DNA of 44,664 bases from Candidatus Velthaea sp. (GTDB lineage: Bacteria > Vulcanimicrobiota > Vulcanimicrobiia > Vulcanimicrobiales > Vulcanimicrobiaceae), in contig JBEKHC010000036.1 in assembly GCA_050012475.1 (NCBI GenBank), positions 1 to 44,664 on the forward strand. The letters run 5' to 3'. This document shows positions 18,936-38,514 of this stretch, piece by piece (position 1 is the first letter of the stretch; each line of letters begins with the position of its first letter). The translations under genes were made by a program, and so were the position numbers. The notes under the pieces are model-generated. The model ran no database searches, was not told the DNA's origin, and worked only from the letters and a program-made list of their open reading frames with translations.

Positions 18936-20159
18936 TTAGGGAACGATGCGGCCGATGCAACCCGCGTATCCCGGCGGGGCGGCACCGGGTTCGGTGAACC
19001 ACAGATTGCGATCGGCTCCAACTGCAATGCTTTTTGGCTGCGCTCCCGCAGCGATATCGCCGGAGAATTCCGTCACTGCGCCGTCAGTCGTGATCCGGCC
19101 GATGCGGCCAAACCGGGTGCTTCCATTCTCAGTGAACCAAAGATTGTCATCCGGGCCAGTGGTGATGCCGTCGAGCGGGCCAGTGGTGATGCCGGAAAAT
19201 GCGGTGACCGCTCCCGTGATGGTGATCCGCCCGATCGTGTTCGTGCTGATGCCGTTTTCAGTAAACCAAAGGTTCCCGTCCGGGCCAGCTGCGATGGCAC
19301 TGGGACCTCCGGGGTAAACACCCGTCGGAATGCCGGTAGAGAACTCGGTCAGCGCTCCCGCGGTAGTGATCCGGCCGATGCTATTGGTACCTGTTTCGGT
19401 AAACCACAGGTTGCCGTCCGGGCCGGCGGCGATTCCATACGGCCCAACAGGCAAGGTGAACAAGTTGGAAAATTCGGTCACCGCGCCTGCAGTCGTGATC
19501 CGACCGATTGCGCCGAGGCCTCCGTTCGTTCGCGTTCCCAACTCGGTGAACCAGAGGTTGCCATCAGGACCCGACGCGATGAACTCCGGCATGCCGCTAA
19601 TGCCGGCAGAGAATTCGGTCACTACGCCCGCGGTCGTGATCCGGCCGATCCGGTGAACTCCTTGTTCGGTGAACCAAAGGTTGCCGTCCGGCCCAGCCGT
19701 GATTCCAACGGATAGAGCACCTGGAGAGATGCCGGCGGAGAATTCCGTTACGATGCCCGCGGTCGTGATTCGGCCGATTCGATTACCCGATATTTCGGTG
19801 AACCAGAGGTTTCCGTCAGGGCCAGCCGCGATGCCGGAGGGCCCACCCGGCAGGGTGATGCCGGTGCAGAATTGGATCATGCTGCCAGGTGAGGCTATTG
19901 GCGTTGGCTGGGTCACGGGCGCTGGACTTGAAGTCGCCGTTGGCATGGTGCTTGGATGTGGCGTGGGCGTAGCGCCGTTGTGCGGCGTCGGCGTAGCGAT
20001 CGGTGTGGTGCTCGGGCGTGGGGTAGGGACGCGCGTTGGCGTCGCACTGGGGACGGCTTCCGGGGTGCCCGGAAGGTTCGACCCACCGCTTTTGCCTGGG
20101 CCGCAGGCGGCAAGAGTAGTGACCAAGGCGACCAAAATTGAGACAGCAATGATGCGCAT
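18936..20159 (-). CDS. Lipoprotein with PT-rich linker and 7-bladed Vgb/streptogramin-lyase-like beta-propeller
   Basis: Lipobox LAAC; seven 'GPDGNLWFTE...IGRIT' repeats. Confidence 0.85.
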   Translation of the reverse strand: MRIIAVSILVALVTTLAACGPGKSGGSNLPGTPEAVPSATPTRVPTPRPSTTPIATPTPHNGATPTPHPSTMPTATSSPAPVTQPTPIASPGSMIQFCTGITLPGGPSGIAAGPDGNLWFTEISGNRIGRITTAGIVTEFSAGISPGALSVGITAGPDGNLWFTEQGVHRIGRITTAGVVTEFSAGISGMPEFIASGPDGNLWFTELGTRTNGGLGAIGRITTAGAVTEFSNLFTLPVGPYGIAAGPDGNLWFTETGTNSIGRITTAGALTEFSTGIPTGVYPGGPSAIAAGPDGNLWFTENGISTNTIGRITITGAVTAFSGITTGPLDGITTGPDDNLWFTENGSTRFGRIGRITTDGAVTEFSGDIAAGAQPKSIAVGADRNLWFTEPGAAPPGYAGCIGRIVP

Positions 20160-20455
20160 GTGCCGCTCCGTAAAAAAGTCCGTCAACGAGGGTTGGTGCC
20201 GGCGAGCGCAAAGCGAGAGGGCGTTCTTCGCTAAGGAGAGCTCCCCTAATCCGTGAAAGCTTTCGGCGGATGGTTTTTTTGTCGGCGCAACGGCCTACTA
20301 CACGGTAAATTCTTCTACATCGTTATTTTATCGCAGCCGGAGTTGTGCCCTCGAATGTCAAGCCGTTCGTTCAAACCGCGCGCGTTGAATTGAGCGGATT
20401 AAAGACGTCCCGCGCACTCGCAATTTTAGAGCTGCCGCCTGAACCCTTCTTTGGC

Positions 20456-23975: not shown

Positions 23976-23994
23976 ATTGCAGCGGGGCCGGTTC

Positions 23995-24441
23995 GTGATC
24001 TGTCCGACGTGCCGGAAGAGCGAGACACGAGTCGTCGATAGCCGGGATGACGAGAGCGTCGTTCGCCGCCGGCGCGAGTGTCTCGCCTGCAAACATCGAT
24101 TCACCACCTACGAGCGCATCGAGGCGCCGCGGCTGTTCGTGGTCAAGAAGGACGGCCGGCGCGAGCAGTATGCGCGCGACAAAATCCTGACTGGCCTTCG
24201 CCGCGCGTGCGAAAAGCGTCCGGTATCCGATGCGCAGCTGGAGGACCTCGTCGCGGGGCTGGAGCGCGAACTGTTCGCGCGCGGCGAAAACGAAGTCCCA
24301 GCCTCGCTCGTCGGCGAGAAGCTCATGGAAGCGCTCAAGGCGATCGATCCGGTCGCCTACATTCGTTTTGCCAGCGTCTATCGCTCGTTCCGCGACGTCG
24401 AGAGTTTTCAAGCCGAATTGGCCGAGCTGCTCGCAAAGTAG
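23995..24441 (+). CDS. nrdR: Transcriptional repressor NrdR
   Basis: CPTC..RVVDSR..RRRRECLAC..RFTTYE, ATP-cone VVKKDGRRE, VAYIRFASVY. Confidence 0.97.
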   Translation: MICPTCRKSETRVVDSRDDESVVRRRRECLACKHRFTTYERIEAPRLFVVKKDGRREQYARDKILTGLRRACEKRPVSDAQLEDLVAGLERELFARGENEVPASLVGEKLMEALKAIDPVAYIRFASVYRSFRDVESFQAELAELLAK

Positions 24442-24500
24442 GCCGAAGGGGGCTCGCCCCGTCGGCCCGGGCGGATTCGAGCGGCGGTTGGGCGCCGTCG

Positions 24501-24560
24501 GTAAACCTTTACACGGGGTGCGTTGATTTCGGCCGCGCTTTCGGGCATAACGCATGTGAC
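24501..24560 (+). promoter_or_regulatory. Duplicated promoter, copy 1 (AAACCTTTACA box, TTGATT-17-CATAAC)
   Basis: Same elements and spacing as 24993-25052. Confidence 0.65.
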
Positions 24561-24875
24561 ATGTCACCTCGCACGAGTCAGGTTGCTGTTGAGTTAGCGG
24601 TTGATATGTATCGGCGTTGGCTTGGCCTGCCGGCGCGCCAACTGATGTTGCAGTCGAGCGAAACGCCTGCGACCTATCGCTGGATTTGGCCGTGCGGGTG
24701 CCGTTTCGATTTCATCGACGACCAGCGTGCGATCGTGCACGAATTACTACCGTGCGCGGGCCACGTGGGCATTGCGCGCCACGTCTATCGTCAGGAACGG
24801 TGCGCGCGAGTTCTTTCGCAGTTGCGGGAATTCCATCGGCCGCCGGCCGGCTCGCCCTTGGATCTCGCCCGTTGA
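24561..24875 (+). CDS. Hypothetical 104-aa protein with WxWxCGC...CxxH motif (paralog 1)
   Basis: MSPRTSQVAVELA...RWIWPCGCRFD...PCAGH aligns with 25091-25312. Confidence 0.7.
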   Translation: MSPRTSQVAVELAVDMYRRWLGLPARQLMLQSSETPATYRWIWPCGCRFDFIDDQRAIVHELLPCAGHVGIARHVYRQERCARVLSQLREFHRPPAGSPLDLAR

Positions 24876-24992
24876 ATGAAACGCCGTCAACACTGGTGCG
24901 GAGCTCGTTGGACGAAAGGATGGTTGGTCACGAGAAGTGACGCGAAGAAATAGCGAACGCAAGTTACTATTCTCAATTTTGATGGGTTCCCG

Positions 24993-25052
24993 CAAACCTT
25001 TACATGCAGTGCGTTGATTCGACCGAGACGGCCGCGCATAAATTAGTCTGAC
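24993..25052 (+). promoter_or_regulatory. Duplicated promoter, copy 2 (AAACCTTTACA box, TTGATT-17-CATAAA)
   Basis: Matches copy 1. Confidence 0.65.
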
Positions 25053-25090
25053 ATGCCACTGTACCCCAAGCTGTTCGACGCGTCGCTCGA

Positions 25091-25312
25091 ATGAAACGCC
25101 TAACGAACCACATTGCATTGGCGATCGCTTCCGAAAAATTTGGCCGGACACTTGGGCCGCCGGCGCGCCACTTCGTGTTGCAATGCAGCGGCGAACCGTC
25201 GGTTTTCCGCTGGCTGTGGATGTGCGGCTGCAGTTTCGACGTGGTCGACGATGCCGAAACGTCCGTTCACTGGCAGCATTGTGCGAATCACACGTCCGTC
25301 AACGGCGCCTGA
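25091..25312 (+). CDS. Hypothetical 73-aa protein with WxWxCGC...CxxH motif (paralog 2)
   Basis: MKRLTNHIALAIA...RWLWMCGCSFD...HCANH. Confidence 0.7.
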   Translation: MKRLTNHIALAIASEKFGRTLGPPARHFVLQCSGEPSVFRWLWMCGCSFDVVDDAETSVHWQHCANHTSVNGA

Positions 25313-25530
25313 CTTTGGGACGGTTCGGAGCGGTTCACCCGTTTCGGTCGAAGCGCTCGAGATCGACCGCTCTTTCGTTCGCGGCGGTCGCGACGAGATC
25401 GCGAAGACTGAAGTGTCAATGCGGTATTTGCGCCGGGCCGACACCGCGGTCTCGCGGTGATCGCCGAGGGCATCGACACCCAGGAAGGTCGGTTGCGCGC
25501 GCTCCGATGCACCTACGCGCAGGGCTGCCA
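25311..25530 (+). pseudogene. EAL (c-di-GMP phosphodiesterase) domain remnant
   Basis: DFGT..., LEIDRSFV, then after a frameshift LAVIAEGIDTQE...LRCTYAQG. Confidence 0.75.
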
Positions 25531-25752
25531 TAATGCCGCGCCGCTTGCGCGCACGCCGCGGGCGCGCCTCCTGGTGAAAGCGCAAGTCGCACGGCCGTCG
25601 AGCGTGACCCGACGGCTCGGAGTTTAAAATCCGCGATTTGGTCAGCTGCACATCTTCCGGCTGCGACATGTTGAGGGCTTGACCGCAGCTACTCCGATTG
25701 TCAACCACGCGTTATGGGGCACACCTACGGAGGAGTTGAGTCACGCGAAGGT

Positions 25753-26505
25753 ATGAATTCCAGTACCATGGCGGAGAAAGCCAGATTCCACGACTTTGGG
25801 ACCCCTGGCGCCGATCGACGTCAATATTTGCGTCTTCCGCTAACATTTCCGATGTGGTGGCTGTCCGGCGAGATTGGCGGCGTCGAGGGGATCGCCATTG
25901 AAATATCAGCTGGCGGAATTCAATTCCTCATGAAGCGAAAGCTTCCAAAACGCGAATGCTCGATTGCGTTCCAAATCAACGATCGAAAGATGTGGGCAAA
26001 GGTCGGCATCGTTCGGTCGATGCAGGAGCTGCATGACAATCAGTACTGGAATTGTTATGGGGCGATTTTCGAGGAGCTGCTCGAGAGTGATTTTGACTTT
26101 ATCGTTGTCTTGAGCTATGCCGGAACAAAACCGCATTCCGAAGCCGGACGGGACAGTTCGCCTGAGGCGCCGCCGGGAGAAGAGCCGCCGGCCGAGTCGG
26201 TGGTATCGATAAGCAGGCTGCGATCGAGCGCGGGGCTGTTGCCCGACGCAGTTCGCGAACAGATCGTGCAGATGCTCGTCGTCATGGATCGCTTGGAAGA
26301 GGTCGACAATATATACTTTGCACCGATTGCGATACACTATATAGGATTACATCCATCGGAAGAAGCCGATGTTCTTTACCACCGATTCGCCGTTCGTTCA
26401 AGAAAAGATACGGCCGATGGTCGAGTGGTTTATAACACGCAGTTTCTGATCAGTGACGACGCCCTAGACATTCGCCTCTACGAAGAGTTTCCCATCGATC
26501 CCTGA
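25753..26505 (+). CDS. PilZ-domain protein with uncharacterised C-terminal domain
   Basis: DRRQYLRLP (RxxxR) and EISAGG (D/NxSxxG-like). AT-richer codon usage than the core genes. Start uncertain (25714/25753/25768). Confidence 0.75.
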   Translation: MNSSTMAEKARFHDFGTPGADRRQYLRLPLTFPMWWLSGEIGGVEGIAIEISAGGIQFLMKRKLPKRECSIAFQINDRKMWAKVGIVRSMQELHDNQYWNCYGAIFEELLESDFDFIVVLSYAGTKPHSEAGRDSSPEAPPGEEPPAESVVSISRLRSSAGLLPDAVREQIVQMLVVMDRLEEVDNIYFAPIAIHYIGLHPSEEADVLYHRFAVRSRKDTADGRVVYNTQFLISDDALDIRLYEEFPIDP

Positions 26506-26589
26506 CGACAATCGTATCGAGAATAGCGGCGGGTGCTGCACTCGTGCCGAAGCTCGATATCTTCCGCGCCTCGCTGTTTACGAGCAGAG

Positions 26590-26890
26590 GTTGACGACGC
26601 TGTGGCTCGGGCTGTCGGATCGGGCACCATAAGCGGCGCAGTCGTCAGGATGTCATTGACCAGCACGTCGAGTTCGAGCCCACCGTAGGATATGTGTAAA
26701 GCTTTGCCAGCGACACCTTCGATGTGATGGACACGTGCCCAGCCGCAACGGCGCGCCCTCGACCTTCTTGGCTCGCGGGCTAAACGCGGACGGAACCTTT
26801 GCACGGCTCGCGCGAACGTCCGAGTTTGACGGCGACGAACGACGAAGTGTTTCGCGCTTCCTGAGCTCTTTGACTGCTGCAACCGGCATG
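26590..26890 (-). pseudogene. Possible highly decayed short-chain dehydrogenase remnant
   Basis: Fragments 'YGGLELDVLVND' and 'SVVNLCS' in different frames resemble SDR motifs. Confidence 0.25.
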
Positions 26891-26963
26891 GCAGACCGAT
26901 AATTAAAACAGGCGTCTTCATTTCGCCCCGGTCTCCCTCACGTCGTCGCTACAACGAGGTTTC

Positions 26964-28754
26964 ATGATCCATCCAGCGCCGGGCTCACGTCCTGCAGGCG
27001 ACACGTCACCTGCGATCGGCCCGATTGAGATTGCCCCGAGAATCTGGTGGGTCGGCTGCTCTGTGCCGGGGGATCGCTTTCAGTGTCACAGCTACCTGAT
27101 CGAACATGGCGATCAGTCGGTTCTGCTCGATCCCGGTTCCGTTTTGACGTGGCCGCAGGTCCGCCGCCAAGTGGACGCGATCGTCGGCCTGCACAACGTC
27201 AGATATTTCGTTTGCCATCATCCTGATCCCGACATCGCCGCCTCGTTGCCTGCCATCGATGCTCAAGTTACCCGGTCCGACGCGGTCGTTGTGACCCAGT
27301 GGCGCGCCGAAGAATTGCTCAAACACTACGGACTGAGCCTGTCGTTCTGGCGTGTCGAGGAACATGAATGGCGTCTCGACCTTGGCGGTCGTCGTTTGCG
27401 CTTCGTGTCCACACCCTACTGTCATTTCCCGGGCGCCTTTGTCACCCTGGACGAGGCGACCGGCACGCTCTTCTCCTCGGATCTGTTCGGAGGTTTCTGC
27501 GAGCCCTGGTCGCTCTATGCGCAAGATGAACAGTACTTTGAACAAATGCGGCCGTTCCACGAACACTACATGCCCAGCCGTGAAATTTTGGGATATACGT
27601 TGGCGCGACTGGAGCAGTTGCCCATCGATCTGATTGCTCCCCAACATGGGTCGATCATACCGAAGCGGTTGACGCGGTTCATGATCGAACGGCTCAAAGA
27701 ACTCGAGTGCGGTATCTACCTCATTACCGATGAAACCACGGACATTCGGCGACTCAGCAAACTCAATCGTGCGCTTCACGACGTGACCGAGACGTTGATG
27801 ATGAAGCATGATTTTGCCGACCTTGGCTGCGAACTCCTCGAAATAGTTCGACGCTATCTGCCCGCGCGGAGTTTGGAGTGCTTCGCGGCAGTCGACCGGG
27901 GCGAGGTGCTCGCACTGGTTTCCGAACATCGCTATCATGGGATGCGAATCCCGATGCCGCCCGCGCTTGCACCAATCTTTGGAACAACGCAAACGCGATG
28001 GACAGCAACCACTGGAGCGAGCTTTGCCTATGGCACTTGGCCGCTTGGACAACCCGACGGCGAGCCAACCCTGATCGTGCCGCTGTTTTCCCCGATGAAT
28101 CGCACGGCTGAGGGTGTCGCTATCGTTCGGCTTGAGCGATCATTACAGCACCGCGCCGAGGTGGATGCACTTTGCGCCCAGTTCAGTGCGCCTTTGCAGG
28201 TCGCGGTCGATCGTCAGCGCGTTCTTTGCTTGACCGACCTCGCGCGCGAGAACTCATATCAGCAAGCTATTCGTGACCCGTTGACGGGTTTGTTCACCCG
28301 CCTGTACATGGCGCAGGAACTCCCTCGGCTGTGTGCACTTCAGGATCGTGGCGCGGGCGGAGCGGTCGGGTTGATCATGCTCGACATCGATTGGTTTAAA
28401 ACGATTAACGACCGCTTCGGTCATATGGCCGGTGACGCGGTTCTCGTTGCCGTGGCAAAAGTGTTCTTGCAGTGTCGCGCGAGTGACGTGCCGGTTCGGT
28501 TCGGCGGCGACGAGTTCGCGATTTTCACGGTGGGCGCAGATAACCGCACCTACGCCGAGCGCCTTCGCGCACAGGTCGCCCAGTTGACGATTTCCGGTTC
28601 CGGCTTCGCGGGCGCAAGCGTGACAGTGAGTTGCGGCGTCGCCTCGCGCGCGCGCAATGAGCCCATCGACGCCCTCATCACCCGAGCTGACCGGGCCCTG
28701 TACCGCGCAAAACAAAACGGCCGAAATCGCGGCTGCTGCGACGTTGAGGAATGA
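26964..28754 (+). CDS. Diguanylate cyclase with N-terminal MBL-fold ODP-like (di-iron) sensor
   Basis: HHPDPD, HFPG, SSDLFG, PQHG metal ligands; DPLTGL, DIDWFKTIND, I-site RASD, RFGGDEF, ADRALYRAK. Confidence 0.9.
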   Translation: MIHPAPGSRPAGDTSPAIGPIEIAPRIWWVGCSVPGDRFQCHSYLIEHGDQSVLLDPGSVLTWPQVRRQVDAIVGLHNVRYFVCHHPDPDIAASLPAIDAQVTRSDAVVVTQWRAEELLKHYGLSLSFWRVEEHEWRLDLGGRRLRFVSTPYCHFPGAFVTLDEATGTLFSSDLFGGFCEPWSLYAQDEQYFEQMRPFHEHYMPSREILGYTLARLEQLPIDLIAPQHGSIIPKRLTRFMIERLKELECGIYLITDETTDIRRLSKLNRALHDVTETLMMKHDFADLGCELLEIVRRYLPARSLECFAAVDRGEVLALVSEHRYHGMRIPMPPALAPIFGTTQTRWTATTGASFAYGTWPLGQPDGEPTLIVPLFSPMNRTAEGVAIVRLERSLQHRAEVDALCAQFSAPLQVAVDRQRVLCLTDLARENSYQQAIRDPLTGLFTRLYMAQELPRLCALQDRGAGGAVGLIMLDIDWFKTINDRFGHMAGDAVLVAVAKVFLQCRASDVPVRFGGDEFAIFTVGADNRTYAERLRAQVAQLTISGSGFAGASVTVSCGVASRARNEPIDALITRADRALYRAKQNGRNRGCCDVEE

Positions 28755-29235
28755 AAAAAAGCTTGGCGCGTCACGAGGCCCGGCAAGCCTCGCCGGTTCG
28801 TCAACTCGATGATCGTTCCGAACCTGCCGCAAGAGTGGCCGCGAATGATCTGGCGCAAATCGCCCCGGCGGACGGACATGCGGCGTCGTAGCAGTCGCCA
28901 CCGCCCTCGGCCCTTGTTTGAGCTTCTCGCCCTGATTCACTCCTAGCGAGGAATATAGCGGCGAAGTCCAGGGCAAAACCGGAGTATCGCACGTGTGGTG
29001 TCTCAGAAGTTCGCATACATCCCGCTCGTCTTTTCGGCCGGCTCATCGTCGTTCTTCGGTAACCGTATCTACGGCTTCGCCGGTGCACCGAGCGAAGCCG
29101 AGGGCACCCATCTCATCACTCCTCGATCCGAACGAAAATCCTTCGCGATCTTTTGCATGGAGCTTCTAAGACACGACACCTAGGTTGCTGCCATGTCTGA
29201 CGCAGAATATGCGGCGAGCGACGCTCGGAAAAGGG

Positions 29236-29529
29236 ATGAAGGCATTCGTGAATGGCTTGTTAAGCGTTGAAGTAAGAATTCTCGACGAGCGCGTTCGCGA
29301 ATGGGGTTTACCGAAATACCACAGTGAGATGGCCGCAGGCATCGATTTATTCGCTTGCCTTGAGCATCATGTGAATATCGAGCCCCAAGCCCCCGCGCTC
29401 TTGGTGCCGCCCGGCATTGCGGTGCATATCGGCGATGCAGGGTATGCGGGACTCGTTGTCCCCAGATCTGGCCTCGGCCATCGAAGTGGCCTGGTGCTTG
29501 GTAACCTCGTAGGCGTGATCGATGCAGAC
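29236..29529 (+). pseudogene. dut: Displaced 5' half of dUTPase gene (motifs 1-3)
   Basis: AAGIDL, PRSGLG, GVIDAD, then abrupt loss of homology at 29530; the ORF runs on to a stop at 29592. Confidence 0.9.
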
Positions 29530-29590
29530 ATTTATGATACTTACATTTGGGTGAAACCCGGGCCCACTGAACTAACGCAGCAAACCATAT

Positions 29591-29798
29591 AGTTGAGGTC
29601 ACTGCCCGTCTATGACGCGAGCAGAGATTGCGCTTCCTCGCCCACCACAGCCCCTGAAGCAGGAAACCTAATAACGACCGGCATTTGCGCGAGCAACGCA
29701 TGCGGACGCGCCTGAGGGTGCAAGCCACAGTTGAGCTCACTGACCGTCTACCACGCGGCCAGAGATTCCGCTTCCTCGCCCACCACAACCCCTGAAGC
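29591..29798. repeat. Two imperfect 70-bp direct repeats (29591-29660, 29729-29798)
   Basis: AGTTGAG(G/C)TCACTG(C/A)CCGTCTA...CAGAGATT(G/C)CGCTTCCTCGCCCACCACA(G/A)CCCCTGAAGC; period 138 bp. Confidence 0.9.
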
Positions 29799-30245
29799 GG
29801 CGAATATGAATGGACTCTCTCGAACATATGAAGCCTGCTCCACTATGTTCACCGCTGCTGTCGCGACATCGGCTCCCAAAATAGGGTCACCGCGATGGAT
29901 CCCGTCTAGGGCGACGGTCATGCGAAAAGGCGGCAAATGGGTGATGATGCACGGCAGATGTTCCAGCCGGTGCGGTGCGTCAAACTGGATCGCAGTCGAT
30001 AACCTGCGCGTCTAAAGATGGCAAATTGCTGAAGCATTGGGACGTGCTGCAAGACGAAGCGACAAAGGCCGAATCGAAAAGCGGGCTTTCGATGTTCGAT
30101 GTTCGGCGATACCGGCCCGCATAATCGTCTATGCCGGCGCGCTATCGACGAGCGACGTGGCGAAGTCCGCGACTGTCTTGTACTTCACGAGGGCGTGTGG
30201 GCGTTATACCGACATCAGCCGTCTCGTCCGCTTTGTTTCGCCGTG

Positions 30246-30424
30246 TACATTGCCCCACTCCGTGCCGCCGGCCCAGCTCCACAAAGGTCGCGCCGGCATC
30301 GTGTTCCTTGAGGATCGAGACGATTTGCGTCTCCCTGAATCGAGACTCCGCATTTGGTTTCCTTTCGGCCCTTTGGCCTGGGAACCCACGGTTTCAGGCG
30401 ACCCGGATCTCGGGGGCTACGTCA
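30246..30424 (-). mobile_element. IS3-family (IS407-group) remnant: left end plus frameshifted orfA start
   Basis: End TGACGTAGCCCCCGAGATCC; MR/SRFRETQIVSILKEHDAGATFVELGRRHGV. Confidence 0.8.
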
Positions 30425-30687
30425 CTGATCCCAGGAGCCGAAGTGCGCCGAGTCTGAAGCGCAGGCTGTCGTCGTGCCTTTATCGCCCGATGTGCCCTCA
30501 GTTCTGCTAGTGCGACGTGGCCTGCTGTTACTTCCCGGACGTATTCATCGGCAACTCTCGCTCGACCGAACCGTTGCGCTGAGAATATTTGTGGACATTA
30601 CCACGAAGAAGTCGAGCCCGGGAAGAACGCGGAGAGAAGCAACGGGGAACGACGTGGTGGGTCAGTAAATGGGCGAGAATGATGCTC

Positions 30688-30790
30688 ATTGGAGCTGGAT
30701 TGACCGAACGCCATCGGCAAGCCGCTCATGCCTTCATGGCCAATAATGCCGACTTCAGCCGTCTCGCCGGCGGGCATCTCGAGCACCCTG
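30688..30790 (-). pseudogene. Crp/Fnr-family regulator fragment
   Basis: GETAEVGIIGHEGMSGLPMAFG is a cNMP-domain segment lacking the rest of the gene. Confidence 0.65.
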
Positions 30791-30797
30791 TCGCGCG

Positions 30798-31424
30798 TTA
30801 GCGCGGCACTCGCGCGCGCCCCGGCGCGGTCCGCTTTAGGTCGCCGCCGACCGCTCGCCAGATGAGCGTGGCCGTGCGCTCGGCCCAGTTGTGCGGCGGC
30901 TTTGCCCCGGTCAGCGCGCGCGCATACCATGAACCGGTTCCCAGCGTGACCGCCACCTCCAGGTCGGCATCATCGTCGATGAGCGCGAAAGCCCGCGCCC
31001 GCTCTAAGATTGCACTGATACGGGCGCGGCGTGGAGCGACGACCCGCGCGCGATAGTCGGCCAGCAGATCGGCCGCGGTGCTGTCTTGCAGCATCGTGCC
31101 AACCAGCGACATGCGCCCCGGACGCGAGACGCCCCGCGCAAAGTCGGCAAGCTCGTTGATCAGATCGGTCAGCGGGCTCTTCGTCGGCGCGGCGGGGCGA
31201 TGATCGATTGCGGGCGGCAGAGCGGCCGCTGCCAAGCTAGCCTTGTCTGGCCAGCGCCGATACAACGCTTGCCGAGTGGTACCCGCCTCGGCGGCAACGG
31301 CGGCCAACGACATCGCTTCGTAACCCAGCGTCGAGAGATGGTGATTCGCCACCGTGAGCACCCGGGCATCGATATCGGGATCGCGCATACGGCCTTGCCG
31401 GCGACTTGACATCTCTCGACTCAT
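30798..31424 (-). CDS. TetR/AcrR-family regulator
   Basis: GYEAMSLAAVAAEAGTTRQALYRRWPDK HTH. Confidence 0.93.
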   Translation of the reverse strand: MSREMSSRRQGRMRDPDIDARVLTVANHHLSTLGYEAMSLAAVAAEAGTTRQALYRRWPDKASLAAAALPPAIDHRPAAPTKSPLTDLINELADFARGVSRPGRMSLVGTMLQDSTAADLLADYRARVVAPRRARISAILERARAFALIDDDADLEVAVTLGTGSWYARALTGAKPPHNWAERTATLIWRAVGGDLKRTAPGRARVPR

Positions 31425-31430
31425 GAGAAT

Positions 31431-31456
31431 ACATTACAGTACCGTATTGTAAATGT
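31431..31456. promoter_or_regulatory. Palindromic operator, probably bound by the TetR protein
   Basis: TTACAGTAC-C-GTATTGTAA inverted repeat in an AT-rich patch between divergent genes. Confidence 0.65.
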
Positions 31457-31594
31457 CGAGCAGAAAGCAGGCGGAGGGATGACTTCCAACCCGGTGCAAA
31501 TCGTCGCAGAACCAAACGAACCCCAGCTACGAACCGTGCGCCCGACCCAGTGCGCCGTTTTAGCGGGTCTGCGCGAAGTGGCGGCCGCCGGAAC

Positions 31595-32365
31595 GTGAGT
31601 CTGCGCGATCCGAACTCCGTAAGCTCGGCGCATCCGAAACGCGTCGCCATCGTTACTTCCAACCCGGCTGTTTCCAGCACCACAGGTTGGCCGGTGGGTT
31701 TTTGGTGGAGCGAATTAACCCACCCCTATTTCCTGCTTACCGAGGCGGGATACGAGGTCGAGATTTTCAGTCCGAACGGGGGCCGGTGCGAAGCTGACGC
31801 GATGTCGGATCCGCGCGACGCTTCCCGCTACTCCGAATCGGATATCATCAGCCTCGGCTTTCTCTCGACTCCGAAGCTGGCTTCGCTTGTGGAGGCAACG
31901 CGCCGGGTTGATGAGATCGAGCTTTCCCGCTTCGATGCCATTCTCGTAGCCGGCGGCCAAGCGCCAATGTTCACATTCAAGAAGGCTATTTCATTGCAAC
32001 GTAAGTTTGTCGAGTTCTACGAGGCGGGGAAGCTTACTTGCGCGCTTTGTCATGGCGTGGCGATCCTTCGTTACGCTCAAGGTTCAGACGGATCTTTCCT
32101 TGCAAGAGGCAAGACGATCACAGGTTTCGCCAATATCGAAGAAGATTTCGCGGACAATGCCGTTTGGAATATGAACTTACTGGCGAGAGATAAGCACATC
32201 ATGCCGTGGCGGATCGAAGACGAACTGAAAAAGATCGGTGCGAATTACGTGAACGCTGGGCTTTGGCGCGGATGCGCGATCCGCGACGGCAATTTAATCA
32301 CCGGGCAGCAGAATTTTTCTGGGCTCGAGACGGCTAGTTTGCTCATCGAAACCCTTGGGCGATAA
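31595..32365 (+). CDS. DJ-1/PfpI (type 1 glutamine amidotransferase-like, Hsp31-type) protein
   Basis: GFWWSELTHPY, AGGQAPM, nucleophile ALCHG, DGNLITGQQ. GTG start at 31595. Confidence 0.9.
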   Translation: MSLRDPNSVSSAHPKRVAIVTSNPAVSSTTGWPVGFWWSELTHPYFLLTEAGYEVEIFSPNGGRCEADAMSDPRDASRYSESDIISLGFLSTPKLASLVEATRRVDEIELSRFDAILVAGGQAPMFTFKKAISLQRKFVEFYEAGKLTCALCHGVAILRYAQGSDGSFLARGKTITGFANIEEDFADNAVWNMNLLARDKHIMPWRIEDELKKIGANYVNAGLWRGCAIRDGNLITGQQNFSGLETASLLIETLGR

Positions 32366-32410
32366 CTAATCCGTCTTTTCCTTGGCTTCTTTTTTACGTT
32401 GAAGGAGTTT

Positions 32411-32749
32411 ATGCGAGTCATTGCTTACGACCGGTTTCGCGAAGGCGTTACGCTCGAGACCATTGGGCCGTATCTCAACGAAGAGGTTGCGAATGTGTGG
32501 CGCTTGTGGAAAGCCGATATCGTTCGAGAGAACTATGCTCGTGCTGATGAACCCGGCGTCGTGATCGTCTTTGAAGTCGACGATGTTGCAACCGCGAAGA
32601 AGTACACTGATGACTTTCCACTGAGTAAACGCGGGCTCATCGAATGGAACTTTATCGCGCTGGAAGCGCCGCTGCCGGTCGAAACGCTTTTTCGTCGCGA
32701 TGTCGACGTTTCGGAGCCGTACGACCGGACGAGGCCTGCGACGCGATAG
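32411..32749 (+). CDS. Small dimeric alpha/beta-barrel (muconolactone-isomerase-like) protein
   Basis: EEVANVWRLWKADIVRENYARAD..GVVIVFE...FPLSKRGLI; SD AAGGAG. Confidence 0.6.
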   Translation: MRVIAYDRFREGVTLETIGPYLNEEVANVWRLWKADIVRENYARADEPGVVIVFEVDDVATAKKYTDDFPLSKRGLIEWNFIALEAPLPVETLFRRDVDVSEPYDRTRPATR

Positions 32750-32764
32750 GGTGCGAGGCCGGCG

Positions 32765-33400
32765 ATGAAGCAAGGCTACGGACTGCTTATTCCTGAGGCG
32801 CTCGCTGATCTCTGCGATCCCGCTCGCACCGCGATAATCATCTACGACATGCAGCGTGGGATCGTACCGCAAGTTTCGACAGGGCCTCAGCTCGTCGACG
32901 GTTGTCGCGCGCTGCTTACTCGCGCTCGCCCGGCGGGCTTTCGCATCTTTTATACGCGGCACATCTCCTTGCCTAATCGAGCAGCCGGCGTGGCTCAGCT
33001 TCGGCGCGCGATGATTTGGCAACGCGTTGACGAGGCGGTTGGTACCCAACCGGCGTTCTTGCCGGACTCGGCGTCGGCACAGATCGTAGCGGAACTATGC
33101 CCGCAGCAAGGTGACGTGATTATCGATAAAATCACGATGTCTGCCTTTGAAGGGACGTACTTAAACATCGCCTTGCGCGACCTCGGCATCTCGGCTATTG
33201 CTATCGCTGGCATCGCCTTGGAAGTGGGCATCGAACCGACGATTCGGCACGCTCTGGACCTTAATTACGTTCCCATCCTGTTTCTGGACCTCTGCGGTTC
33301 CCGCTCCGACGACCTTCGTGAGCGTTCGATTTCGACCTTACAGCAGACGAGCGAAGTCTTGATGCCCTCCAGTGCAGACTGGCTTAGCTTGTTCCCATAG
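32765..33400 (+). CDS. Isochorismatase/cysteine-hydrolase family protein
   Basis: IIYDMQ, DKITMSAFEGT, GIALEVGIEPT. Confidence 0.88.
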   Translation: MKQGYGLLIPEALADLCDPARTAIIIYDMQRGIVPQVSTGPQLVDGCRALLTRARPAGFRIFYTRHISLPNRAAGVAQLRRAMIWQRVDEAVGTQPAFLPDSASAQIVAELCPQQGDVIIDKITMSAFEGTYLNIALRDLGISAIAIAGIALEVGIEPTIRHALDLNYVPILFLDLCGSRSDDLRERSISTLQQTSEVLMPSSADWLSLFP

Positions 33401-33442
33401 AACGGAACACAGTCGTGAGCCCCGTTTACGCACGCGAAAACC

Positions 33443-35470
33443 TTGCGGCAGGCGCATAGCGCGGATCCGTATTCAGCAGCAGCCGCTGATGATGGAAGAC
33501 TCGAGCTGACCGTGCGCCACGCTGCGGACCTGGGATACGCCCCAATCCTTGTTATCGATGCATACGGCTCGGTTAAGAAAGTGGCTGGAGCAAGCTCCCT
33601 GGCAAGCCTTGTCGCGTTTGGCGATTCACTGCAGACCGATACCAAGCCATCTTTCCGCTTCTACGCCGTCAAGGTGCGGCACCTCAGAAAGGATAGCGCC
33701 TTGGAACATGCTACGGAACTGGAGGGGCTGCTGAAGGCAGCACGTTCGCTGCAGGCCAAGGCCGCAGCGGAGACGTCTCACCCGGAAAACCTGGTGGATC
33801 GCCTCGAAGCGTCGGTAACGCGGCCGCTTGCGAAGCTGCTCGGCGTGGCCGACGTGCCGGCGGTTTCCGAGCTGCCGGCGGCGCAAGGTCGCACCCTCGA
33901 CATGGCTTTATGGGATCTCACGCGATGTGCGACGGAGCTTTGCGTGCGCGACTGCCCGGCGGAACTTATGGAGGCTACGGCCGGACTTCAAGCGTTGGCC
34001 TGCCGAGCGCACTCGGGCGATGAAAGTCCTCGCGGCATCGAGCTGCGCGCGCTTCTCGCGCATCAGCCGCCCGCCATTCGAATCGAGTCGAAAGGTCCGC
34101 TACTGGTCACAAACGTCGAGAATATCTACGACTGGCTCGGCCTACCGCTCCCGGCCCATCCGCTCACTGCCCTTTGCCGATGCGGCGCTTCGGCGATGAA
34201 ACCATACTGCGATGGAAGCCATGCGCGTAACTTCGACGACGCAAAAGACCCTGCTCGCGTCGCGGATCGCCGCGACACGTATGTCGGTCAGCAAGTGATG
34301 ATTCTCGATAACCGCGGGACGTGCCAGCACTCGGGCTTCTGTACCGACCGGCTCTCAACGGTATTCCGGCTGCACCAAGAGCCGTTCGTCGCTCCGAGCG
34401 GCGGGCGCATGGACGAAATCATCCGAGTGGTGCGCGACTGCCCCTCAGGCGCACTCAGTTACGCGATCGACGGCATCGAGTCGCGCGGCGACGTCGATTA
34501 CCACGGAAAGCGCGCATCGAGTATCGAGGTTTCTAAGGACGGCCCGTATCGCGTGACCGGCGCGATCGCCCTGTTCGACGCGGACGGCGATCCCGTCGTG
34601 CGCAACGCCGGCGCCTCGACCGAGCACTACACACTCTGCCGCTGCGGTCACGCGCAGAACAAACCATTCTGCACGGGCATGCATTGGGCCATCGAGTTTC
34701 GCGATCCGGTCCCGGCCACGGATCGTGCGCCGACGATCTTCGAGTGGGCGGGCGGCCTCCCCGCGCTCACACGAATGACGCGTCTCTTCTACGAAAAGTT
34801 CGTTCCCGCCGACGATCTGCTGGCTCCGGTCTTCGCGAACATGTCGGCCGACCACCCGCAACGCGTTGCTAAATGGCTCGCCGAGGTGTTCTGTGGTCCG
34901 AATTGCTACAGCGAAGACTTCGGCGGTTATGCTCGCATGATTTCAGAGCACCTCGGAAGGTGCCTGACGGAAGAGATGCGCGCGCGCTGGGTCGCGCTCT
35001 TGCAGCAATCGGCGCGCGAGGCGGGTCTCCCAAACGACGCCGAGTTTCGCTCCGCGTTTGCGTCGTATCTTGAATGGGGCTCGCGCTTGGCCGTTGAAAA
35101 CTCACATGTCGAGTCCCGCCCGCCGCTGCACATGCCCATGCCGCGATGGGATTGGACCACAAGTGCCGGACCGCCGGGAAGCCGCATCTCAGCACTCGCG
35201 CCCGCCAACGATCCAGCAGACGTTGCGCCCGTTCTGCCGGGTTCCAACGAAACGGTCGAGTTTGGGAAACACATTAAAGGACTCTTCCGCGATCGTGATC
35301 GTAGGTCGATGAAGTTCGCCTTCGACCTCGGATCATATGCCGATGTGAGTGCGCACGCTGATGGGATTCTCGAGCGCGTGCGAAACGGCACGATGCCGTG
35401 TGACGGCGCGTGGCCTCAAGAACGCGTCGAGGTTTTTGCGCGATGGATTGCGGGCGGAAAGCTCGCTTGA
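33443..35470 (+). CDS. CDGSH 2Fe-2S / ferredoxin / CDGSH / group II truncated haemoglobin fusion (possibly 5'-truncated)
   Basis: LCRCGASAMKPYCDGSH; CQHSGFC...CPSGAL; LCRCGHAQNKPFCTGMH; TIFEWAGG...HPQRVAKWLAEVF...MISEH; C-terminal MPCDGAW domain. True start unclear. Confidence 0.8.
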   Translation: MRQAHSADPYSAAAADDGRLELTVRHAADLGYAPILVIDAYGSVKKVAGASSLASLVAFGDSLQTDTKPSFRFYAVKVRHLRKDSALEHATELEGLLKAARSLQAKAAAETSHPENLVDRLEASVTRPLAKLLGVADVPAVSELPAAQGRTLDMALWDLTRCATELCVRDCPAELMEATAGLQALACRAHSGDESPRGIELRALLAHQPPAIRIESKGPLLVTNVENIYDWLGLPLPAHPLTALCRCGASAMKPYCDGSHARNFDDAKDPARVADRRDTYVGQQVMILDNRGTCQHSGFCTDRLSTVFRLHQEPFVAPSGGRMDEIIRVVRDCPSGALSYAIDGIESRGDVDYHGKRASSIEVSKDGPYRVTGAIALFDADGDPVVRNAGASTEHYTLCRCGHAQNKPFCTGMHWAIEFRDPVPATDRAPTIFEWAGGLPALTRMTRLFYEKFVPADDLLAPVFANMSADHPQRVAKWLAEVFCGPNCYSEDFGGYARMISEHLGRCLTEEMRARWVALLQQSAREAGLPNDAEFRSAFASYLEWGSRLAVENSHVESRPPLHMPMPRWDWTTSAGPPGSRISALAPANDPADVAPVLPGSNETVEFGKHIKGLFRDRDRRSMKFAFDLGSYADVSAHADGILERVRNGTMPCDGAWPQERVEVFARWIAGGKLA

Positions 35471-35789
35471 AATAGAGATGTTCGTTCGGTTGCCAAATCG
35501 AGACCTCCGGCCGTCGGCGAACATCGACGCTGTCTTCGCATTCAGCGTGCTGGACAACCTTGTCGGCGATTAACGGTGCACGAAACTCTTGTCAACGACG
35601 GCGACGTTGCGCGCCCTAAGATGAGTGGGCGCCAGCCGCGGCGGCGCGCCGTCGTTCGGACGGGGCGACGTACCCGCAACGTTCGAGCGACGCGCTTGTG
35701 ATCTGCTCGGTGCCGCGCTCGATCGCGTCGAGCGCGGCCCGGCACAGCAGCGCTGGGATCTACCCGATGATCCCCTGCGACAGACTCAG

Positions 35790-35885
35790 GATCCCGAGCT
35801 GCAGCGGTATTCCACGATCCCTTACCGCAACACGACGCACCCGGCGATCAGCATCTGGGAACTGCGCGGCGGCATCAAATACGCG
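35790..35885 (+). mobile_element. TniA/TnsB (Mu-type) transposase C-terminal fragment
   Basis: DPELQRYSTIPYRNTTHPAISIWELR resembles the IPYR..xHPxIxxWE segment of Tn5053/Tn7-like transposases. Confidence 0.65.
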
Positions 35886-36191
35886 AATCGACGAGCCTGC
35901 CCGGTTTAGCGCCGCCACCTCATCACCGTGGAGCATGGGTTTCGATCGCCTTGACGACAGCTGCGGAACTTTCGTCCATAAGATAGTGCCCGCAGATAGT
36001 GCCCGCCTGGCAGCATGACTATCGTCACCCGGGACCAACCGTGCGCGCGCAAGTCTGCAGCCAGGGGCTTCAGGGCGGGGCCGATACCCTTCTCGCCACC
36101 GACAACTGCAATGGGTATGCGGACGGCATCACGATGAGCGCGATCGAAGGCGGCGTCGGCAGGAATCGCGCGGTAGCCGCCAAGACTTCAT

Positions 36192-36557
36192 ATGAGAATT
36201 GCTGGAAAAGTCGATAAAAATACGCTTAAGCAGCCATATCATGCAGAACTCATGAAAGCCGTCGATGCCTTCATAAGTAGTAACTCAATCTCAGTATCTG
36301 AGCCGGGCGCAAAAAGCATGACGGAAACGCATGATCTGGGCCACTATGCGCAACTCCTTTTGGCTGCGCAGATTACGCGAGATGCAGCAGAGGCGGAAAC
36401 GGAAAAGATGAGGGCTCGCGTTGATGCCCTGGAAGAAGAGGTGCGTACCCTTAGGACAGAGTTCTCCGCTTCTCGGCCCCCGGGTGCTGACGTTCTGCCT
36501 ATAAGAAAGACGTTGTCGGAAGAATTGGACGCTGCGCGTAGACGATGTAAAAGCTGA
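36192..36557 (+). CDS. Small coiled-coil protein, possibly a TnpC/GinD-like integrase accessory (may be 5'-truncated)
   Basis: HTH-like 'AGKVDKNTLKQPYHAEL', coiled coil, 'DVLPIR' tail; AT-rich; adjacent to the island end. Confidence 0.45.
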   Translation: MRIAGKVDKNTLKQPYHAELMKAVDAFISSNSISVSEPGAKSMTETHDLGHYAQLLLAAQITRDAAEAETEKMRARVDALEEEVRTLRTEFSASRPPGADVLPIRKTLSEELDAARRRCKS

Positions 36558-36699
36558 AAGGTTATAAGTTAGGGGAGGTAGGAAGGCTCCGAGGAGTTCA
36601 GCTCGGCTAAGAGTTGCAACGTTGAGCCCAGTTCCGCGGGAACCGAGGCGACACAAGAGATTTCGCAATGAAAAACGCGTTGAGGGGCTGAGAAAAGTC

Positions 36700-37203
36700 G
36701 TGCATGAACTGCCGAACGTGGAAGTGAGGATTCTCGACGAGCGCGTTCGCGAGTGGGGATTACCAAGATATCACAGCGAGATGGCTGCAGGTGTCGACTT
36801 GTTCGCCTGCGTTGAGGAGTGCATTGATCTCGAGGCTCAAGCTCCGGCGCTTTTGGTACCCTCCGGCATTTCGGTTCATATCGGCGACCCGGGCTTTGTG
36901 GGACTTGTTCTCCCGAGGTCAGGCCTAGGCCACCGAAGCGGGCTAGTGCTTGGTAACCTCGTAGGCGTGATCGATGCAGACTATAACGGCCCGCTCCTGG
37001 TAAGCGTCTGGAATCGCAGCGCCCTGGGATCGCTGCCGGTGCGGATCGAGCCGGGGGATCGGATCGCTCAACTCCTCTTCGTGCCGGTCGCTCGTCCAAT
37101 GTTGGCCTTCGTCGAAACCTTCTCGAAGGATTCGGAGCGCGGCGACGGAGGCTTCGGGTCGACCGGGTCGTCCGTAACGCCCGGCAAAACGCCAAGAGTT
37201 TGA
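36700..37203 (+). CDS. dut: dUTP diphosphatase (intact, chimeric across the right repeat)
   Basis: All five motifs: AAGVDL, PRSG, GVIDADYNG, GDRIAQL, RGDGGFGSTG. Start uncertain (GTG 36700). Confidence 0.95.
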   Translation: MHELPNVEVRILDERVREWGLPRYHSEMAAGVDLFACVEECIDLEAQAPALLVPSGISVHIGDPGFVGLVLPRSGLGHRSGLVLGNLVGVIDADYNGPLLVSVWNRSALGSLPVRIEPGDRIAQLLFVPVARPMLAFVETFSKDSERGDGGFGSTGSSVTPGKTPRV

Positions 37204-37286
37204 CTGAAAGCGCCATCGGCCTCGGCTCTCTCACGTTCACCCGAAATTGTAACCGTGCGAAGCAGGCTTGTCGCCTTGGGTGCTGC

Positions 37287-37463
37287 CCGCCGGACGCGCC
37301 GGCGCTCATCGTCAACCTGGGCGACCGCATCGTGCAATTGCCGTTCATCCCGGTGCCACGGCCGGTTTTCCAACTCGTCGACGAGTTCGCCAGAGCGATC
37401 GGTCGCGGCGGCGGCGGCTTCGGTTCGACGGGACACGGCATGCCCGCCGGGAACTCTTCGTGA
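37287..37463 (+). pseudogene. dut: Degenerate 3' fragment of another dUTPase (motifs 4-5)
   Basis: PALIVNLGDRIVQLPFIPVPRP...RGGGGFGSTG; GC-rich, host-like codons. Confidence 0.85.
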
Positions 37464-37533
37464 CGATGGATGTGGCAGCACGTGCGGCGCTTGCTCCCTG
37501 GAGCTTCGCGCGGGAATCGACCGCCGGCGAACG

Positions 37534-38514
37534 ATGAACGTCTACGTCGTGGGCGCGGGCGCCGTCGGTACGTATCTGGGTGAAGAACTGCGCCGTATCG
37601 GCAACGCCGTGATCTATGCGCCGCGGGACGGAGAAGTCGATGAACCCGTCGACATCGATCTCGCGATCGTTGCGGTGCGTTCGTTTCATACCGATGCGGC
37701 GATTGCGACGCTGCGGCGCGCGCTTCGCAATCCGGATTCGACCGCCGTCATGACGCCCCAAAACGGCGTGGGCAACGAGGAAAAATTGGCAGCCGCGTTC
37801 GGTGCCGAGAACGTGATCTCGGCGGCGCTGACCGTGCCGGTGGGTCGCGACAAAAGCGGTCAAGGCCAGGCGGCCGGCGGCGGAGGGATCGTATTCGCAC
37901 CGGTCGGCAAGACCAACGCCCACAATTGGCTGTTGGCCGCGTTCGGCGCGACCGGCATTCCGGTTTCGGCGGCCGTCGACTATCGCTCGCTCAAATGGTC
38001 GAAGCTCGCGCTCAACGTGGTTGCGAACGCATCGTGCGCGATTCTCAACGTTCTGCCCGAGCGTTTGGTCCATCTCGACGACGTCTTTTCGCTCGAAATT
38101 CGCGCGATCCGGGAAGTTCGCGCCGTGATGAAAGCACTGGGGATCGCACCGATCGATTTACCGCGATATCCGGTGCGCGCACTGCAGAGCGTCGCGAGTC
38201 TGCCTGCTCCCGTTGCGCGCTACGTGCTGGCCAACCGCATCGCTGGCGCGCGCGGCCGCAAGCCGCCGTCACTCCTGCTCGATTTGCGCGCTGCGAAGAA
38301 TCGCACGGAAGTCGACGTCCTCAACGGCGCGGTCGCCGCTGCGGCGCGCACGTCGGGGGTGAGTGCGCCGGTCAATATGGTGTTTGCGCGCGTCGTGAGC
38401 GATATTGCGAGCATGCCGCAGCTGTGGGCGAAATACCGCGAACGGCCCGAAGCCCTCGAAGCCGAAGTCCAGGCGGAGGTCGCCCGCGGCGGCCGCTCCT
38501 TCGCTTCCGTTTAG
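37534..38514 (+). CDS. panE: Ketopantoate reductase family protein
   Basis: VVGAGAVG, TPQNGVG, KWSKLALN, PSLLLDL...TEVDVLNG. Confidence 0.85.
   Translation: MNVYVVGAGAVGTYLGEELRRIGNAVIYAPRDGEVDEPVDIDLAIVAVRSFHTDAAIATLRRALRNPDSTAVMTPQNGVGNEEKLAAAFGAENVISAALTVPVGRDKSGQGQAAGGGGIVFAPVGKTNAHNWLLAAFGATGIPVSAAVDYRSLKWSKLALNVVANASCAILNVLPERLVHLDDVFSLEIRAIREVRAVMKALGIAPIDLPRYPVRALQSVASLPAPVARYVLANRIAGARGRKPPSLLLDLRAAKNRTEVDVLNGAVAAAARTSGVSAPVNMVFARVVSDIASMPQLWAKYRERPEALEAEVQAEVARGGRSFASV

Follow-up and report, generated by a model that had tools for sequence, protein, structure and literature searches.

A contig of Candidatus Velthaea sp. (GCA_050012475.1, JBEKHC010000036.1; nearest named relatives labelled Eremiobacteraeota or Vulcanimicrobiota) carries three pieces of dut, the dUTPase gene, between the host genes nrdR (23977-24441) and a panE-like gene (37531-38514), both on the plus strand. 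We consider it likely that dut-targeting elements of a four-gene tyrosine-recombinase kind, similar in build to the SE, GInt and Tn554 elements, inserted here at least twice in succession and that this region is what remains of them. The window analysed here is the entire 44,664-bp contig, from an assembly of 5.36 Mb in 204 contigs with a completeness of 93.8% and a contamination of 5.3%. The pieces, all on the plus strand, are a 5′ half (piece A, 29248-29529), a complete gene (gene B, 36700-37203) and a decayed 3′ end directly 5′ of panE (piece C, 37286-37440). They are the only dut matches in the genome at this completeness, and B is the sole complete dUTPase gene found; B gives full-length matches to the NCBIfam profiles PRK00601 (150.6 bits, cut-off 103) and TIGR00576 (119.3 bits, cut-off 102.55), by which it is predicted to encode an active trimeric dUTPase.

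Piece A, the 5′ half of the previous resident dut, ends in V-I-D-A-D and breaks at position 29529, after the second Asp of what we take to be motif 3 of the enzyme. Directly behind the break lies a putative element left end (attL, 29530-29555, plus strand), in which an 11-bp core, identical at 9 of 11 bases to the left end of an element in Novosphingobium, is accompanied by the arm motif TGGGTGAA, located 18-21 bases out from the break in the window and in Novosphingobium alike. A pattern that combines the Novosphingobium 11-mer (up to 2 mismatches) with TGGGTGAA, a motif picked after both sequences had been seen, has one match in the 5.36-Mb genome, at 29530. Between the stop codon of B and piece C is a decayed right end (attR relic, 37235-37267, plus strand): 16/20 bases of 37235-37254 match the right-arm 20-mer of Novosphingobium, and matches of this quality number 4 in 10.7 million positions, one of them here. 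Upstream of B, a plus-strand frame at 36192-36557 appears to be an N-terminally truncated relic of the fourth core gene of such elements, Srap/GinD/TnpC-like and with a coiled coil. Its product is identical at 13 of 23 positions to the fourth core protein of Novosphingobium G041 and is the only match of that protein in the genome at E<0.05; a full-length relative aligns at 37% over 89 aa, and both fall near DUF6262 clusters, which we treat as a lead only. In this way the window preserves both element ends, with the cargo, the tail of the core and a complete dut between them, and a dut 3′ half beyond the right end. An earlier, sequence-only prediction for this DNA had described A, B and their identical ends, and missed piece C, the end motifs, the relic at 36192-36557 and the start of foreign DNA at 24442.

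The same arrangement was found with an intact core among the relatives surveyed (80 genome loci and 80 metagenome loci). Four loci (L055, L056, L134 and L126) hold a complete foreign dut, the arm motif and then a host-type dut 3′ half that starts at the motif-3 Tyr, with 100-400 bp from the foreign gene to the 3′ half. L055 and L056 belong to the Novosphingobium genomes G041 and G042, in which the host dut 5′ half follows coaBC on a separate contig, breaks at the second Asp exactly as piece A does and is succeeded by the same left-end motif. Window and relatives share the break codon and matching end motifs, and in the relatives the core lies beside attL and the complete dut beside attR; the earlier proposal of site-specific integration into motif 3 of dut is supported by this agreement. 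The elements of L055 and L134 are 99.5% identical over 10.7 kb, with the identity stopping at the junction (500/500 bases before it and 121/180 after it); the two loci thus hold a single element in distinct host dut genes. The G041 core comprises four genes after attL, encoding 431, 718, 681 and 204 aa. The 431-aa protein matches PF00589 (E 1.9e-7), the 681-aa protein falls just below the cut-off of that profile (E 8.5e-6; 26.1 bits against 27.1), and the third and fourth proteins recur letter for letter in several Alphaproteobacteria (36 and 50 contigs). Among the Novosphingobium cargo, spread over two contigs, are chromate genes, efflux genes and a pair formed by an OLD nuclease and UvrD; no transfer genes were found among the scanned open reading frames of G041. 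At L055, 1754-9116 encodes the OLD-TOPRIM ATPase and UvrD helicase, which we take to be Gabija-like, and a DUF6932/HTH-IrrE/Beta-protein cluster stands just before dut. The mechanism proposed for the window is transferred by analogy from Novosphingobium, through the end motifs and the homology of the accessory gene: the core recombinases would perform the insertion, and the carried dut would rescue the host, which would now depend on B.

In gene order, ends and footprint, the dut element agrees with SEs and GInts, and we liken its build to these and to Tn554 elements. As in SEs and GInts, four core genes run from attL (a tyrosine recombinase, a long recombinase-fold protein, a large recombinase and a small coiled-coil protein), the ends are short imperfect inverted sequences (8/11 matching in G041 and G042), a 6-bp footprint lies at attR and the target site is fixed. 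G041 has both the four-gene row and the recombinase pair of that class, and the window keeps only the relic of the fourth gene. Plasmid searches with G041 proteins returned 2 and 1 records, none of them a named SE, and Atlas neighbours were DUF6262/VPA1267 clusters. In SEs and GInts, the 6 bp beside the donor attL end up at the new attR, and SEs leave no empty site (PMC9345347, PMC10214605). In the dut elements, the hexamers before attR and before attL are not the same; all three distinct attR ends read x-Asp, as dut does there, which fits capture from the dut of an earlier host. Unlike SEs and GInts, the dut-carrying element targets dut, brings a whole replacement and sits outside Gamma- and Betaproteobacteria: SEs have been reported from Gammaproteobacteria and GInts from both classes, and Tfp and Srap were not found in Alphaproteobacteria (PMC9345347, PMC10214605). 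This class of four-gene recombinase module occurs in Alphaproteobacteria at non-dut sites too. A search for distant relatives of its first gene, intA, returned 29 loci; of the 18 that were checked, 17 lack dut within 1.5 kb. On a Microvirga plasmid, a four-gene relative likewise shows no listed dut within 6 kb, and on these grounds dut targeting is limited to a subclade. The Microvirga module (L318, 2162-8084) stands beside a Kiwa-like defence gene.

The original prediction had taken a 36-bp identical block in A and B as the attL/attR core of a family that supplies a new 5′ half, in the manner of islands at dusA or at prfC, the integration site of SXT/R391. Its coordinates and counts are confirmed. 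The block (29494-29529, equal to 36946-36981, plus strand) forms the last 12 codons of A, the final 6 bp being the predicted att spacer, and its copies are offset by 7,452 bp. A and B are 79.5% identical across 91 codons; 8 of the 11 codons directly 5′ of the block differ synonymously, and a second patch of identity, 23 bp long, lies near the 5′ end. Outside the block, 29/60 same-residue codons are identical. When the identity of same-residue codons was shuffled 200,000 times, a run of at least 12 identical codons arose anywhere with p 0.006 (0.6%) and at the terminus with p 0.0005 (0.05%). General conservation among dut genes, the explanation that the prediction had set against itself, is ruled out because L122, the closest uninterrupted relative, differs from the block in 5/12 codons and 12 further clade genes match only 24-31 of its 36 bases.

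A dusA- or prfC-type element whose attP holds a dut 5′ half, and whose integration restores the gene directly, would account for this terminal identity beyond chance and for the position of the 5′ part of B behind an element core gene. It also has precedents: dusA-associated islands supply a new 5′ end at an att site, where a repeat of about 21 bp is shared (PMC4482086, Farrugia 2015), and long identity blocks with replacement sequence are known at icd, tRNA and dusA targets (PMC10111431, PMC4482086). The dut element has in common with the dusA islands and SXT/R391 a tyrosine recombinase, a target in a conserved coding gene, a function that is kept and an old 5′ end at the border. We nevertheless regard this explanation as unlikely. 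All four right ends in the relatives consist of a non-coding arm and a complete dut, the host gene is left in two pieces, and attR lies outside the complete gene. In the window, the island end has no intact integrase, and the junction of B lacks the right-end motif (only 12/32 bases match the arm), which instead appears after the B stop codon. In addition, no contig of four sequencing runs joins 29529 to 36982 as an excision joint, although contigs cannot show its absence. Because the two junctions in G041 and G042 have only 2-3 bp in common, the 36-bp block is not the att core of the family; more likely, it is a patch or product of later recombination.

That the locus was hit more than once, as the original prediction had suspected, follows from the contrast between A and C: because they belong to different subclades and C has decayed while A has not, we propose two insertions of different age. 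In the trees, bootstrap support is 99 for the grouping of A with B and L122 and 85 for that of C with the gene of G003, to which C is 73% identical in DNA; the rest of the 135-base tree that holds C is poorly supported. Piece A is 82% identical to L122, the same as B, and looks undecayed; C matches intact relatives at 24.8 of 39 residues, compared with 33.3 of 39 among six intact relatives themselves. A has a third-position GC of 0.58, C one of 0.79. L122 is a metagenome contig with flanking genes around 79% identical to those of the window; behind nrdR it has 1.9 kb of cargo and an intact gene closely related to B, then a decayed relic and panE, and it lacks piece A. We also recovered the non-host codons that had been noted in both 5′ halves: rare codons make up 8/91 in A and 9/91 in the 5′ half of B, versus 3/327 in panE. 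No older attL or older dut 5′ half was found between nrdR and A. A single insertion, in which A and C are the halves of one split gene, B is wholly the element’s and the 36 bp arose by gene conversion or chance, would give exactly the Novosphingobium layout, with a single copy each of the left end, the complete dut, the right end and the 3′ half. We find it improbable in view of the different subclades and composition of A and C, the decay of C and the right end but not of A and the left end, and the right-side relic of L122, which resembles that of the window and stands there without A.

An alternative without site-specific recombination is that dut fragments were simply duplicated or acquired horizontally, or that strains were mis-assembled. 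The 204 contigs and 5.3% contamination, the lack of a nearby integrase and the lack of a contig spanning the whole stretch in the four runs examined speak for it. Yet the break codon and motif are those of an element with an intact core in another phylum, and near-identical contigs cover the island in four runs of four studies, which together make this explanation very improbable. Parts of the stretch are contained in 20 runs from 15 studies, 9 of them with half or more of it; the contigs of four were examined, and the best-matching run may be the source sample. Single contigs bridge 35805-36742 (from the srap-like relic to B) and 37193-37884 (from B through C to panE). Two of the four runs have a 1,147-bp deletion that starts inside A (29402 to 30550, with 30 bases on the short side) together with a 2-base insertion at 29273 in A that shifts the frame; A is thus decaying in sister strains.

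Under the two-insertion history, an element would insert after the second Asp codon of motif 3, split the resident dut and bring a complete dut at its far end. The older insertion would have left the right-end relic and piece C and installed a first foreign dut; the recent one would have split that gene, producing piece A and a fresh attL. The core genes intA, tfp, intB and the start of srap would then have been lost, and the element in the window is therefore taken to be immobile. The window contains no integrase or recombinase gene, which agrees with the earlier view that the integrase is gone; the element origin that this view gave to the 5′ part of B is supported too. Single-protein and profile searches of 24400-37600 found no recombinase relic apart from the srap-like piece. 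A serine recombinase is likewise missing from the genome (PF07508), and the relatives carry tyrosine recombinases. The layout requires a promoter for B, as expected if the island brings dut under its own control, but a consensus scan of 36400-37560 gave no plus-strand match and so did not locate one. Two courses could have produced B within this history. We lean slightly towards a single crossover between the newcomer’s dut and the still intact first gene, which would at once turn B into a hybrid, eliminate the newer right end and explain the 36 bp. Rather less probable, though a serious contender, is that B comes entirely from the newcomer, in which case a deletion took place between the two right ends and gene conversion made the 36-bp patch. 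Decay of cargo and fragments would eventually leave a foreign dut at the native position.

Several observations weigh against this history or narrow its base. The two halves of B stand equally far from L122 (0.79 and 0.79-0.80), with which B also has upstream sequence in common, and this suits a whole gene better than a hybrid. Piece C has lost its first codons, the right-end relic contains an insertion, and the two element ends of G041 and of G042 are on separate contigs. The G041 integrase matched 0/401 genomes, and no intact element was recovered from the host’s phylum; the split dut with recombinases that the original prediction had suggested seeking in genomes is that of Novosphingobium. 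Distant profile matches numbered five in 246 genomes of the host’s family, none with dut within 1.5 kb. Two samples, each of 401 genomes, were searched for the left-end pattern, which yielded mostly chance matches and no further dut junction; among the 47 pattern loci checked (30 from the first sample, all 17 from the second), dut was present in one, which is G041 itself. Because these searches yielded nothing further, the mechanism rests on few and partly near-identical relatives. Viral contigs gave 0 matches to the left-end pattern and only short, weak matches to the integrase and accessory protein.

Loci without an element show what has been displaced. In G001, which belongs to the same genus as the host, nrdR, a native-type dut around 41% identical to B and panE are contiguous; together with the intact B-like gene of L122, this provides the uninterrupted relatives that the prediction had called for. 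nrdR and panE adjoin dut in 28/28 native-type loci returned by the search (25/25 without G011, G022 and G024, which are marked unpublished; G011 and G022 are also tree rows), and nrdR normally lies immediately 5′ of dut. The best relatives of B are scattered over Eremiobacterota, Alphaproteobacteria and Betaproteobacteria; on plasmids, no close relative was found (best 57.7%). Of the 65 chosen proteins in a tree, 38 fall into a single foreign clade (support 100/100) that branches among gammaproteobacterial genes, at a large distance from the host phylum’s native genes. As the rows are chosen top hits, the tree shows coherence and not frequency. Many members of this clade occupy the native position after coaBC (L049, L053 and L054; one gene further in L047 and L058) or before panE (L042, L045, L122-L125 and G003), and in L045 and L125 the foreign dut directly follows nrdR. 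Foreign-type dut is carried by 12/251 genomes of the family of G041. Of the 11 carriers other than G041, 7 have it directly before a ThiF gene and 1 before DUF4136, and coaBC lies 0.8-6.5 kb upstream in 5; the 6-20 kb fetched around these genes held no dut fragment and no matching recombinase. The same foreign clade at the native site in Eremiobacterota, Alphaproteobacteria and Betaproteobacteria suggests in-place gene replacement driven by elements, and repeated visits may be the reason that unrelated bacteria have the same foreign dUTPase at the normal chromosomal position.

Among described islands, that of Pseudomonas putida KT2440 disrupts tmk and brings an unrelated phage-type kinase as replacement, in one strain (PMC10653934). 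There, as here, a gene of nucleotide metabolism is broken and the activity is carried by the island; unlike there, the replacement here is a true dut and recurs across phyla. No mention of dut was found in the main texts of PMC9345347 and PMC10214605 or in seven supplements of PMC10214605. Literature searches returned no description of a dut-targeting element that carries dut, with the proviso that work by Mageeney from 2020 may already cover the clade. That work, on candidates for regulated gene integrity, reportedly lists dut among genes disrupted by integrative elements, as gene inactivation, and dut may on that account already be in print as an integration target. On balance, we favour the view that dUTPase motif 3 is the target of an undescribed, dut-carrying SE/GInt-like clade that is active in Alphaproteobacteria and in Eremiobacterota, that the host comes to depend on the carried dut because its own gene is broken and an empty site may not form, and that a ratchet explains the foreign clade at the native site. 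In this ratchet, each new element would attack the dut left by its predecessor.

The gap between nrdR and panE, on this reading a hotspot of insertion, is 13 kb of lower-GC DNA (0.59-0.60 versus 0.65-0.66), and foreign DNA begins at 24442, not at 29530. An older foreign block (24442-29235; GC 0.588 versus 0.657 on its left), absent from G001, includes an ODP/GGDEF gene (26964-28754). Also within it, two small frames at 24560-25312 are related to each other, both with C-x-C motifs, and resemble one another upstream, the second having no Pfam match, and a non-coding repeat of around 190 bp, MITE-like and with 13 copies in the genome, lies just 5′ of piece A (28993-29180). Just inside the left end, two 70-bp direct repeats (29591-29660 and 29729-29798, plus strand), 89% alike, occur nowhere else in the genome. 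The cargo behind them comprises, by Pfam, a TetR-family regulator (30798-31424, minus strand); a DJ-1/PfpI protein, a small YCII-like protein (weak match) and an isochorismatase-family protein (31550-33400, plus strand); and one long frame that fuses CDGSH, 4Fe-4S and bacterial globin domains (33443-35470, plus strand). This last frame stands with the DJ-1 and isochorismatase genes in a redox/stress-like cluster. Segments at 30044-30257 (to contig C13) and 35605-35870 (to C30 and C4) are 83-88% alike to those contigs and are probably relics of other mobile sequences. Outside the island, 18936-20186 (minus strand) encodes a predicted secreted protein with about seven repeats of 43-46 residues, presumably beta-propeller-like.

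Homologous recombination does not readily account for a core gene that gives way, at one and the same chromosomal position, to a distant foreign copy. The loci described here can be aligned as stages of such a replacement: an element with an intact core (G041), a fresh three-piece scar (the window), a foreign gene with leftover cargo (L122, L042 and several sphingomonads) and a seamless replacement (L045 and L125). They suggest break-and-replace as a means of element lock-in without a toxin, by a recombinase for which, in distant hosts, a conserved protein motif apparently serves as the target. Four-gene recombinase elements would then extend beyond Gamma- and Betaproteobacteria, and dut trees need not follow species trees. 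If the ratchet holds true, it would provide a concrete mechanism by which housekeeping genes are replaced in place across phyla.

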